Of a stretch of DNA of 64,000 nucleotides, positions 5,672 through 7,434 are shown one piece after another. Source of the DNA: Escherichia coli 042 (GTDB lineage Bacteria > Pseudomonadota > Gammaproteobacteria > Enterobacterales > Enterobacteriaceae); NCBI RefSeq assembly GCF_000027125.1, contig NC_017626.1; one strand, 5' to 3'. Position numbers and translations under genes: made by a program. Position 1 is the first letter of the stretch. The number at the start of each line of letters is the position of its first letter. The notes under the pieces are model-generated. The model was not told the DNA's origin. It saw only the letters and a program-made list of their open reading frames with translations, and made no database searches.

Positions 5672-6823
5672 ATGGAATGGTTTATGGGCAAATATATTCG
5701 TCCCTTATCCGATGCGGTATTTACCATCGCATCTGATGACCTGTGGATCGAGAGTTTAGCGATCCAACAATTACACACCACGGCAAATTTACCCAACATG
5801 CAGCGCGTAGTAGGGATGCCAGATTTACATCCCGGACGCGGCTACCCGATTGGCGCAGCGTTCTTCTCCGCAGGCCGTTTTTACCCGGCACTGGTCGGCA
5901 ATGATATCGGCTGCGGCATGGCGCTATGGCAAACAGATATTCTCGCTCGCAAATACAACGCCGATAAGTTTGAAAAGCGATTATCAGCTTTGGATGACGT
6001 TGCTGAAGAAAGCTGGCTGGAGGAAAACCTGCCGTCAGCATTTGCACAGCATCCGTGGCGCAGCTCGCTTGGCTCTATCGGTGGCGGAAACCACTTCGCA
6101 GAACTGCAACAAGTTGATGAAATCATCGACGCTGAACTGTTTGCACTGGCAGGTCTGGATGCGCAGCATCTGCAACTGCTGGTTCATAGCGGCTCGAGGG
6201 GGTTGGGGCAGTCTATTTTACAGCGGCATATTGCCTCGTTTTCGCATCATGGTTTGCCTGAAGGCAGTGACGACGCGCTACGGTATATTGCGGAACATGA
6301 CGATGTGCTAGCGTTTGCGCGTATTAATCGCCAGATGATTGCTTTGCGCATAATGCAACAAGTTAAGGCCACCGGAAGTCCGGTTCTGGATGTGGCGCAT
6401 AACTTTGTTAGCGCGTGCCAAATCGGCGATCAACAGGGTTGGTTGCATCGTAAAGGTGCCACGCCGGATGACAACGGTCTGGTGATTATTCCCGGTTCAC
6501 GCGGTGATTACTCCTGGCTTGTACAGCCTGTTGCGAACGAAAAAACGCTCCACTCGCTGGCGCATGGGGCAGGGCGTAAATGGGGGCGCACCGAGTGTAA
6601 AGGGCGTCTGGCAGCGAAATGCACGGCGACGCAACTCTCGCGTACTGAACTTGGCAGTCGGGTAATTTGTCGCGATAAACAACTCATCTTTGAAGAAGCG
6701 CCACAAGCCTATAAATCGGCTGAAAGCGTGGTGCAATGTCTGGTGCAAGCCGGTTTAATTATTCCTGTCGCGCGGCTGCGTCCGGTGCTAACGCTCAAAA
6801 ACAGTGGAGGGAAAAAAGGATGA
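5672..6823 (+). CDS. RtcB-family RNA ligase paralog coupled to release factor H
   Basis: 383 aa with an RtcB-like GGNHF metal-binding motif ([13 protein letters not shown]); stop overlaps the prfH start (ATGA). Confidence 0.8.
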
Positions 6824-7434
6824 TCTTGCTACAACTCTCCTCAGCGCAGGGGCCGGAAGAATGTTGCCTCGCAGTGAAAAAGGCGCTGGACAGGTTGATT
6901 AAAGAAGCTACCCGACAAGACGTCGCGATAACGGTGCTGGAAACAGAAACGGGTCGCTACTCTGACACGTTGCGTTCAGCGCTGATTTCTCTGGATGGCG
7001 ATAACGCATGGGCATTAAGCGAAAGTTGGTGCGGCACTATCCAGTGGATTTGTCCGAGTCCGTATCGGCCTCATCATGGGCGCAAAAACTGGTTTCTGGG
7101 CATTGGGCGTTTTACTGCTGATGAGCAGGAACAATCGGATGCAATCCGTTATGAGACGCTGCGTTCGTCGGGGCCGGGCGGTCAACATGTCAATAAAACC
7201 GACTCGGCGGTACGCGCCACGCATCTGGCATCCGGGATTAGCGTGAAGGTTCAGTCAGAGCGCAGCCAACATGCCAACAAACGGCTGGCGCGATTGCTGA
7301 TTGCCTGGAAGCTGGAGCAACAGCAACAGGAAAATAGCGCGGCGCTGAAATCGCAGCGGCGAATGTTCCATCACCAGATTGAACGTGGCAACCCGCGACG
7401 AACGTTTACAGGGATGGCTTTTGTCGCTGTGTAA
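6820..7434 (+). CDS. prfH: Peptide chain release factor H (RF2-like, GGQ motif)
   Basis: ATG at 6820 overlaps the upstream stop; 204 aa; GGQ motif in [20 protein letters not shown]. Confidence 0.8.

Follow-up and report, generated by a model that had tools for sequence, protein, structure and literature searches.

The closest described relative of the locus analysed here is the RtcB2-PrfH pair of Escherichia coli ATCC 25922, in which an RNA ligase and a release factor act on damaged ribosomes; our copy lies in a 64,000-nucleotide (nt) stretch of DNA from E. coli 042 (contig NC_017626.1), referred to below as the window. In published work, PrfH catalysed peptide release only on 70S ribosomes cut at 16S A1493/G1494, without the need for mRNA in the A site (PMC9304027), and the E. 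coli protein was inactive on intact 70S ribosomes and not bound to them in cryo-electron microscopy (cryo-EM) (PMC9304027). RtcB2 re-ligates cut 16S ribosomal RNA (rRNA) in the 30S subunit and not cleaved tRNAs, RtcB1 does the reverse, and repair of 70S ribosomes is stimulated by PrfH (PMC9304027). In vivo, the rescue of growth from E3-like toxins is lost with either PrfH Q122E or RtcB2 H294N (PMC9304027). Knockouts in ATCC 25922 render the strain sensitive to colicin E3, to which K-12 is sensitive regardless (Maviza 2022, PMC9223846), and the pair gives no protection against colicins E5 or D (PMC9223846). A deletion of ~1000 nt in K-12 and O157:H7 was reported together with uninterrupted copies in CFT073, UTI89 and 042 (Baranov 2006, PMC1586002). 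Earlier publications already cover the two-gene system and what it does, as well as the K-12 deletion and the coupled translation of the genes (Baranov 2006; Tian 2022; Maviza 2022).

A second described system concerns the control of such an operon. In Pseudomonas aeruginosa, disturbing how the leader peptide PA5471.1 is translated induces armZ-PA5470(prfH) by attenuation (PMC3516279, PMC12057347, PMC13041342). The peptide has 13 amino acids (aa), among them Gln3 and Phe4, and is encoded ~250 base pairs (bp) upstream (PMC3516279; PMC13041342). A 2025 review regards the PA5471.1 mechanism as unique to MexXY regulation (PMC12057347).

We conclude that positions 5501-7434 of the window very probably hold a complete copy of the known RtcB2-PrfH rescue-and-repair operon, in its ancestral position between dinB-yafNOP and pepD. 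Both genes lie on the plus strand: rtcB2 (5684-6823) encodes an RNA ligase of the release-factor-H-coupled RtcB subfamily (379 aa), and prfH (6820-7434) a release factor H of 204 aa, of the short class without a C-terminal tail. Neither is a chance open reading frame (ORF), since their family scores lie far above the respective cut-offs. RtcB2 scored 637.7 bits against NF007153 (cut-off 407; profile positions 1-378 of 379), 616.1 bits against TIGR03073, the model for release-factor-H-coupled RtcB proteins (cut-off 271.8), and 248 bits against PF01139. PrfH scored 328.8 bits against TIGR03072 (IPR017509; cut-off 166.65) and stayed below the cut-offs of the other families, with 94 bits for prfB (370), 82-83 for prfA (400-423) and 33.7 for ArfB (100). 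An initial annotation had described both genes as full-length, joined by an ATGA coupling overlap at 6820-6823, with the GGNHF motif of RtcB and the GGQ of PrfH retained. Alignment to APEC O1 and to Protein Data Bank (PDB) entry 7SA4 bears this out, revealing no frameshift and no truncation; the overlap is visible in the raw sequence, the first motif lies within GGGNHF at RtcB2 residues 133-138, and the second at PrfH residues 120-122.

The same annotation had placed the start of rtcB2 at 5672, as in the ORF table (5672-6823, plus strand, 383 aa), which is probably 12 nt too far upstream. A start at 5684 is more likely, because the identical allele is annotated in RefSeq from this second in-frame ATG (379 aa), because the NCBIfam profile alignment of the 383-aa ORF begins at residue 5, and because the upstream ATG at 5672 is out of frame or missing in Citrobacter, Intestinirhabdus, Providencia and Pseudomonas, in nearly all of whose loci ATGGGCAA is kept. 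At the other end of the gene, the ATG of prfH (6820-6822) overlaps the TGA of rtcB2 (6821-6823), 10 nt downstream of a Shine-Dalgarno sequence, GGAGGG, at 6805-6810. Overlapping stop and start codons, with rtcB2 directly 5' of prfH on the same strand, were also found in 13 other loci, and the overlap would be expected to couple the translation of the two genes.

The active site of RtcB2 appears complete. The motifs GNDIGCG, GGGNHF (133), HSGSRG (168), AHNF (238) and HGAGR are all present and align with those of the Thermus thermophilus, Pyrococcus horikoshii and human RtcB ligases, there being no close solved structure; apart from His294, we take them to be metal ligands, by analogy with the P. 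horikoshii structures. His294, which is catalytic in EcRtcB2 (Tian 2022, PMC9304027), is kept as well. As a stand-in for the characterised ATCC 25922 RtcB2 we used that of APEC O1 (B2 lineage), to which the window protein is 97% identical, and strains FCI48 and MS 198-1 encode exactly the same RtcB2 and PrfH as the window. These features bear on a rival account, by which RtcB2 would be mainly regulatory, an anti-repressor like P. aeruginosa ArmZ, rather than a ligase. ArmZ and RtcB2 are members of one RtcB subfamily (PRK09588), and ArmZ binds MexZ, a repressor (PMC3516279, PMC12057347). That role, however, needs MexZ as a partner, a part of the mexXY system, and in the window the active-site motifs and His294 have all been kept. 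E. coli is not known to have a MexZ-type partner. Moreover, the E. coli protein ligates 30S subunits, and H294N abolishes most of the protection (PMC9304027). Because the ligase site is intact and this mutation has such an effect, we regard an anti-repressor role as very unlikely.

PrfH could be compared with a solved structure. The best match was chain 8 of PDB entry 7SA4 (E = 2e-135), with 199 of 202 aligned residues identical (residues 1-202) and the substitutions K20R, I37V and V202I; this chain shows PrfH from E. coli ATCC 25922 on a damaged 70S ribosome, determined by cryo-EM (Tian 2022, PMC9304027). The window protein lacks release factor domain 1, its 204 aa aligning only to RF2 residues ~115-305. 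In the structure, the 3'-phosphate of the cleaved A1493 is met by R83, H86, R88, R189 and the G-P at 11-12 (PMC9304027), with further contacts from K89 and N90 to helix 18/S12, from R52, S53, R181 and H184 to 23S C1914 and from H85 to C1054 (PMC9304027), and Gln122 is the catalytic residue (PMC9304027). All of these published rRNA-contact residues, together with Gln122, are identical in the window, APEC O1 and 7SA4. The protein ends in ...TGMAFVAV, without the basic C-terminal tail that defines the dual-activity PrfH-CT subfamily (PMC12829566). As a separate observation, prfH appears split into two called genes of 144 and 61 aa, with a frame break near residue 120, in an Intestinirhabdus metagenome contig (L014, 3637-4312); rtcB2 is intact there, and this may be a natural loss of PrfH with RtcB2 retained.

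With both genes and their catalytic and contact residues intact, strain 042 appears to have retained the module, as had been proposed. That such an intact pair repairs nuclease-damaged ribosomes, also stated in the initial annotation, is published for ATCC 25922 (PMC9304027, PMC9223846), and we infer the mechanism in the window from its near-identical proteins. A colicin E3 or CdiA-CT(ECL)-type nuclease would cut 16S rRNA between A1493 and G1494; a pocket in the rRNA-recognition domain of PrfH would bind the 3'-phosphorylated A1493, and the GGQ motif would hydrolyse the peptidyl-tRNA, so that the ribosome could be dismantled; RtcB2 would then seal the break in the 16S rRNA of the 30S subunit thus released.

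K-12 shows what the locus looks like when it has decayed. The initial annotation had described it as degenerate there, with an rtcB fragment and a truncated prfH, and the MG1655 annotation and our alignment agree. Comparison by BLAST with the K-12 locus, together with the junction sequences and the pseudogene annotation, identified window positions 5891-6917 (1027 bp) as the stretch deleted in K-12, flanked by the 9-nt repeats TACCCGGCA (5882-5890) and TACCCGACA (6909-6917). This deletion takes RtcB2 residues 70-379 and about the first 33 prfH codons, so that MG1655 retains codons 1-69 of rtcB2 and a prfH without its N-terminus, both of which carry a pseudogene annotation (ykfJ/prfH, b0235, b0236). 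In addition, a 129-bp repeat that we take to be of the ERIC type sits in K-12 between window positions 5665 and 5668, just upstream of where rtcB2 starts. The pseudogenes otherwise share their locus, flanks and upstream leader with the window, whose positions 5400-5665 are 98.9% identical to K-12, and differ by the deletion and the insert, both of which are features of K-12. The insertion point, ~5665-5668, lies in a U-rich loop between segment 3 of the leader (see below) and the rtcB2 start, and looks like a hot spot for insertions. The 129-bp repeat is also found there in Escherichia sp. MOD1-EC7003, a ~56-bp mini-version in Escherichia sp. E1V33 and probably in O26-type strains too, and a similar small insert in K. 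spallanzanii; in strain MS 198-1 a copy of IS1 ends ~21 bp upstream of rtcB2, and Intestinirhabdus carries an insert of ~170 nt elsewhere in the leader.

Across E. coli, the intact state is about as common as the deleted one. A match to the locus of some extent was present in 5415 of 5426 complete genomes, and at least 80% of window 5494-7441 in 2709 of the 5426. Retention is ordinary, and the finding is correct but itself ordinary, because the pair is known and kept by about half of E. coli. The allele is less common: window 5494-7441 is ~96.4% identical to most E. coli (representatives of A, B1 and B2 alike), and at least 99% identity was found in only 140 of 20,395 records, which suggests a minority lineage. 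The 96%-identical allele of strain 042 had been remarked upon by Baranov et al. (PMC1586002). The order dinB-(yafNOP)-rtcB2-prfH-pepD recurs in Salmonella, Kosakonia, Cronobacter, Intestinirhabdus, Klebsiella and Citrobacter, and since it is common to these enterobacterial genera the operon is ancestral at this site and not a mobile island. Limnobaculum, Providencia, Proteus, Pseudomonas and Tahibacter carry rtcB2-prfH in other genomic contexts.

The frequency of loss raises the question of whether two intact ORFs amount to a working system. They could instead be effectively silent, a cryptic remnant heading for the decay seen in K-12, O157 and BL21 that would not protect the cell when expressed at its native level. 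Much of the locus is gone from about half of E. coli genomes, the neighbouring yafO has an internal stop in this lineage, the ribosome-binding site of rtcB2 is weak and predicted to be base-paired at rest, and the strong protection seen in complementation came from plasmid overexpression (PMC9223846). On the other side, the nucleotide differences from APEC O1 number 41 in rtcB2 and 25 in prfH, and only 11 and 4 of these, respectively, alter the protein, three of the four in prfH being its last three codons; changes that are mostly synonymous in both genes point to purifying selection. The whole regulatory leader, described below, is conserved across genera, which would not be expected of a dead locus. 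Furthermore, wild-type ATCC 25922, which has the same leader layout as other B2 strains, was protected by its chromosomal copy, and knockouts were sensitised (PMC9223846). With synonymous-biased divergence, a conserved leader and chromosomal protection in ATCC 25922 against it, we consider a silent locus unlikely and keep to the reading of a complete operon.

That operon probably has its own promoter and leader. The yafP-rtcB2 gap of 190 nt holds a putative sigma-70 promoter, a short ORF and a set of alternative helices. The promoter (5501-5529, plus strand), read from the sequence, consists of a -35 element TTGCAA (5501-5506), a 17-nt spacer and a -10 element TAGTAT (5524-5529), with transcription predicted to start near 5536, and its likely activity is suggested by the recurrence of TTGCnn/17 nt/TAnnAT at the same place relative to the leader in Klebsiella, Citrobacter, Salmonella, Cronobacter, Limnobaculum, Providencia, Proteus, two Pseudomonas and Tahibacter; in Kosakonia the arrangement is weak. 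Two other candidates in this region were set aside. A GC-rich inverted repeat at 5516-5537 was considered as a terminator for yafP and rejected, the comparison across genera identifying it as the 17-nt spacer and -10 element of the conserved promoter. A minus-strand match to Rfam STnc350 (21.5 bits against a threshold of 60) was treated as chance because the Salmonella locus has no such match.

Downstream of the promoter lies a leader ORF (5571-5618, plus strand) of 15 codons and a TAA stop, reading MTNPLSMTLCRPFQD*, with a strong Shine-Dalgarno sequence, AAGGAGG (5558-5564), 6 nt upstream. It was unannotated in the RefSeq records that we examined, but an ORF of 13-16 codons occupies the same place in all 17 non-E. 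coli loci examined, which span 5 families and reach as far as Tahibacter. These ORFs have a variable N-terminus, an (L/F/I)C(R/G) core, a fixed length after that core and a stop codon that is nearly always TAA. Their Shine-Dalgarno sequence, the promoter and the helices described below are likewise conserved across these loci. In P. aeruginosa the leader ORF reads MIQFSTLCRLRLA, shares its nucleotide core with that of E. coli and lies 254 nt upstream of armZ. Since this fits the published length, Gln3, Phe4 and distance of PA5471.1, the E. coli leader ORF appears to be its orthologue. A report cited in PMC3516279, known to us through that citation, describes K-12 ykfJ, the rtcB2 stump with the same leader, as inducible by the translation inhibitor 4-azaleucine.

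The leader can be divided into four plus-strand segments that are predicted to pair in competing ways. Segment 1 (5554-5564), CTGCAAGGAG, overlaps the Shine-Dalgarno sequence of the leader ORF; segment 2 (5593-5613) lies within leader codons 8-15 and comprises CTCTTTGCAGAC (5593-5604) and CCAGG (5609-5613); segment 3 (5630-5655) is made up of TTGCCC / CCTGG / GTCTGC / CCATTTCC, with GTCTGC at 5643-5648; and segment 4 (5672-5691) is the rtcB2 initiation region, containing GGAATGG (5674-5680), which is likely a weak Shine-Dalgarno sequence, the ATG at 5684 and GGGCAA (5686-5691). Helix P1, between segment 1 (5554-5563) and segment 2 (5593-5602), appeared in the minimum-free-energy folds of 11 of 12 taxa, all but the metagenome-assembled genome (MAG) UBA3516, and in the RNAalifold consensus (columns 7-14/49-56), with a predicted duplex energy of about -10 to -12.5 kcal/mol in 10 of 11 taxa and -6.7 in Cronobacter. 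Helix P3 pairs segment 3 (5643-5655 and 5630-5635) with 5672-5691 in most single folds and in the RNAalifold consensus, so that the consensus fold sequesters the rtcB2 start. Helix P2 would instead join segment 2 to segment 3 through GCAGAC (5599-5604):GTCTGC (5643-5648) and CCAGG:CCTGG. The predicted energies of P2 and P3 are similar, at -21.5 and -18.8 kcal/mol in E. coli and from -14.6 to -23.8 and from -13.7 to -22.5 kcal/mol, respectively, across taxa.

The pairing of P2 recurs even in distant relatives. GCAGAC:GTCTGC gave 6 of 6 standard pairs in all 15 taxa, as against 1-3 of 6 in slid registers, the Tahibacter pairing having been re-anchored by eye after the script chose a wrong TTGC; in one alignment (A3), 97% of P2 cells were paired, versus 17-48% when slid. 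Compensatory changes were seen in Providencia (GCGGGC:GCCCGC), Proteus (GCGGAC:GTCCGC) and Limnobaculum/Pseudomonas (GCAGGC:GCCTGC). In P3, the RNAalifold consensus contained one covarying pair, U-A in 3 sequences and A-U in 3, and the partners read GGAATGG with CCAT.TCC in Escherichia, Salmonella and Citrobacter and GGATTGG with CCA.ATCC or CCAAT.CC in Klebsiella, the MAG, Kosakonia, Cronobacter, Limnobaculum and Proteus. Because MAFFT failed to align the 3' partner correctly in Proteus, Providencia and Pseudomonas, we used motif-anchored tables and a 9-sequence alignment for the formal counts.

From these predicted folds, we propose that the operon is probably run from its own promoter through a leader in which a 15-codon ORF is combined with three helices that exclude one another. 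In the resting state, segment 1 would pair with segment 2 and segment 3 with segment 4, hiding the rtcB2 start. Were a ribosome to stall on the leader ORF, at its start or nearby, it would cover segment 1, and the freed segment 2 could capture segment 3, exposing the rtcB2 start or preventing termination. Experiments have demonstrated such a logic for the apparently orthologous PA5471.1 leader of P. aeruginosa armZ-prfH. Since segment 1 is the leader's own Shine-Dalgarno and start region, the trigger would be a stall at initiation or within the first few codons. In light of the apparent orthology of the leader ORF to PA5471.1, the operon is probably switched on by ribosome stalling.

Several observations weigh against the picture of a complete operon under leader control. 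At the protein level, RtcB2 departs from the APEC O1 protein at 11 residues, and PrfH closes with the residues VAV where the APEC O1 protein has IEG, a difference beyond the reach of the 7SA4 alignment, which stops at 202. The VAV end (7423-7434) sits at the extreme end of the rRNA-recognition domain, and it differs because homology to most E. coli stops at ~7426-7441, where an extra two-gene segment starts. In the leader, rtcB2 lacks a strong Shine-Dalgarno sequence, and a simple consensus scan found no promoter, having missed the putative one because only 8 of its 12 positions match; neither promoter/terminator scanning nor inspection made an intrinsic terminator evident in the enterobacterial leader, whereas the Pseudomonas model uses one. 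We regard the promoter/terminator scan as uninformative rather than negative. Covariation in the close set was not significant, its one pair being matched or exceeded in 111 of 500 shuffles, and the table of distant taxa picks the 3' partner by motif, which biases it towards complementarity. Finally, when ribosome occupancy was modelled by masking 30 nt at various leader codons, masking the leader start lifted the accessibility predicted for the rtcB2 start from 0.29 to no more than 0.38, a shift that was small but in the same direction in 11 of 12 taxa. With a shift of this size, equilibrium folding is no proof of a switch, and given also the weak covariation, the motif-anchored table and the lack of a visible terminator, the leader mechanism is one that we only infer.

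What the leader responds to bears on what the operon is for. Its main selective role could be broader than toxin repair, a general response to stalled or chemically injured ribosomes (from antibiotics, oxidative damage or endogenous toxins) for which colicin E3 is just the best-studied trigger. Many drugs that target the ribosome induce the P. aeruginosa operon, whose PrfH (PA5470) reportedly relieves stalling by azithromycin (PMC12057347); one PrfH subfamily also rescues intact stalled ribosomes (PMC12829566), and the conserved leader would sense stalling in general and not a specific cut. However, the basic C-terminal tail of that dual-activity subfamily is missing from the 204-aa PrfH, and E. 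coli PrfH was neither active on intact 70S ribosomes nor seen bound to them (PMC9304027). RtcB2 of E. coli repaired no tRNA (PMC9304027), and the pair did not protect against colicins E5/D (PMC9223846). We therefore find a broader main role rather unlikely, and return to repair of cut ribosomes by RtcB2 and PrfH.

It is possible, although we hold the idea only tentatively, that the enterobacterial rtcB2-prfH leader senses ribosome damage directly. After cleavage by colicin E3, ribosomes still initiate and are reported to accumulate at start codons (PMC13166195). A cut ribosome parked on the leader start would cover 5554-5563; the freed GCAGAC (5599-5604) would pair with GTCTGC (5643-5648), and the rtcB2 start would be unmasked. 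If this were true, the repair enzymes would be made only while damaged ribosomes exist, with shut-off once leader translation resumes, and the PA5471.1 mechanism would extend to a self-regulating circuit ancestral to the RtcB2-PrfH family as a whole.

Turning to the neighbouring genes, yafO (4633-5031) contains an internal stop, TAG at 4828-4830 (codon 66), and the antitoxin gene yafN of this toxin-antitoxin pair is intact; RefSeq also flags yafO as a pseudogene in FCI48 and MS 198-1. Between prfH and pepD lie two extra genes (7442-8303). The first (7442-8005, plus strand; RefSeq start 51 nt later) encodes a YdjM-family membrane 'metal-dependent hydrolase', and the second (8022-8303, minus strand) a 93-aa hypothetical protein, with a perfect 9-bp hairpin at 8280-8301 inside its 5' end. 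They are present in 329 of 5426 E. coli genomes, in E. whittamii and in other Escherichia clades, and absent from K-12, APEC O1 and other genera; the segment looks like an old Escherichia stretch that most E. coli have lost. PADLOC had no model for RtcB2, PrfH or these two downstream genes.

If the proteins act as their near-identical relatives do, strain 042 should tolerate 16S rRNA nucleases of the colicin E3/CdiA-CT(ECL) type, unlike K-12, B/BL21 and O157, which is relevant to bacterial competition in the gut and to users of such toxins or of K-12-based assays. With the locus present in some E. coli and absent from others in a ratio of roughly 50:50, the species provides natural material for studies of what ribosome repair costs and what it gains. 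The conserved leader, in turn, offers a concrete, testable account of how a repair operon is switched on. In the searchable literature, which did not reach Morita et al. 2009, we found no description of the E. coli leader; that paper is said to describe the P. aeruginosa PA5471.1-armZ(PA5471)-PA5470(prfH) leader-peptide attenuator. The conservation of the leader in Enterobacterales, as judged by sequence comparison, is a modest extension of the known Pseudomonas mechanism.

Of the described systems, the RtcB2-PrfH pair of ATCC 25922 shares species, locus, gene order and the 4-nt overlap with the window, and the PrfH contact residues are kept within the 199 of 202 identical positions; the window differs in its divergent allele and in the two genes between prfH and pepD. 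Attenuators of the ermC/cat type likewise combine a short leader ORF with a stalled ribosome proposed to re-pair four RNA segments and so expose a downstream start. The likeness is architectural only, since in the window segment 1 is the leader's own Shine-Dalgarno and start region and no drug-specific arrest motif is known. The P. aeruginosa operon differs in having a peptide of 13 aa and a leader of ~250 nt, as against 15 aa and ~113 nt in the window, in the extra role of ArmZ as an anti-repressor for MexZ, and in a published model based on transcription termination, whereas the enterobacterial leader, with no obvious terminator, looks like a translational (erm-type) switch. It is nevertheless built from the same two-gene family. 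Identity is 73% between the RtcB-family proteins of P. aeruginosa (P0229) and Pseudomonas sp. YH-1 and 62% between the latter and the window RtcB2, and Pseudomonas PrfH is 62% identical to the window PrfH. Both leaders, moreover, share the core GCAAAGGAGG..ATG..CTTTGCAGRC..GYCTGCC..ATGGATTGG..ATGGGCAA and a short ORF ending in LCRxxxx, a likeness through which the leader links the literature on ribosome repair in E. coli with that on antibiotic induction of armZ/MexXY in P. aeruginosa.

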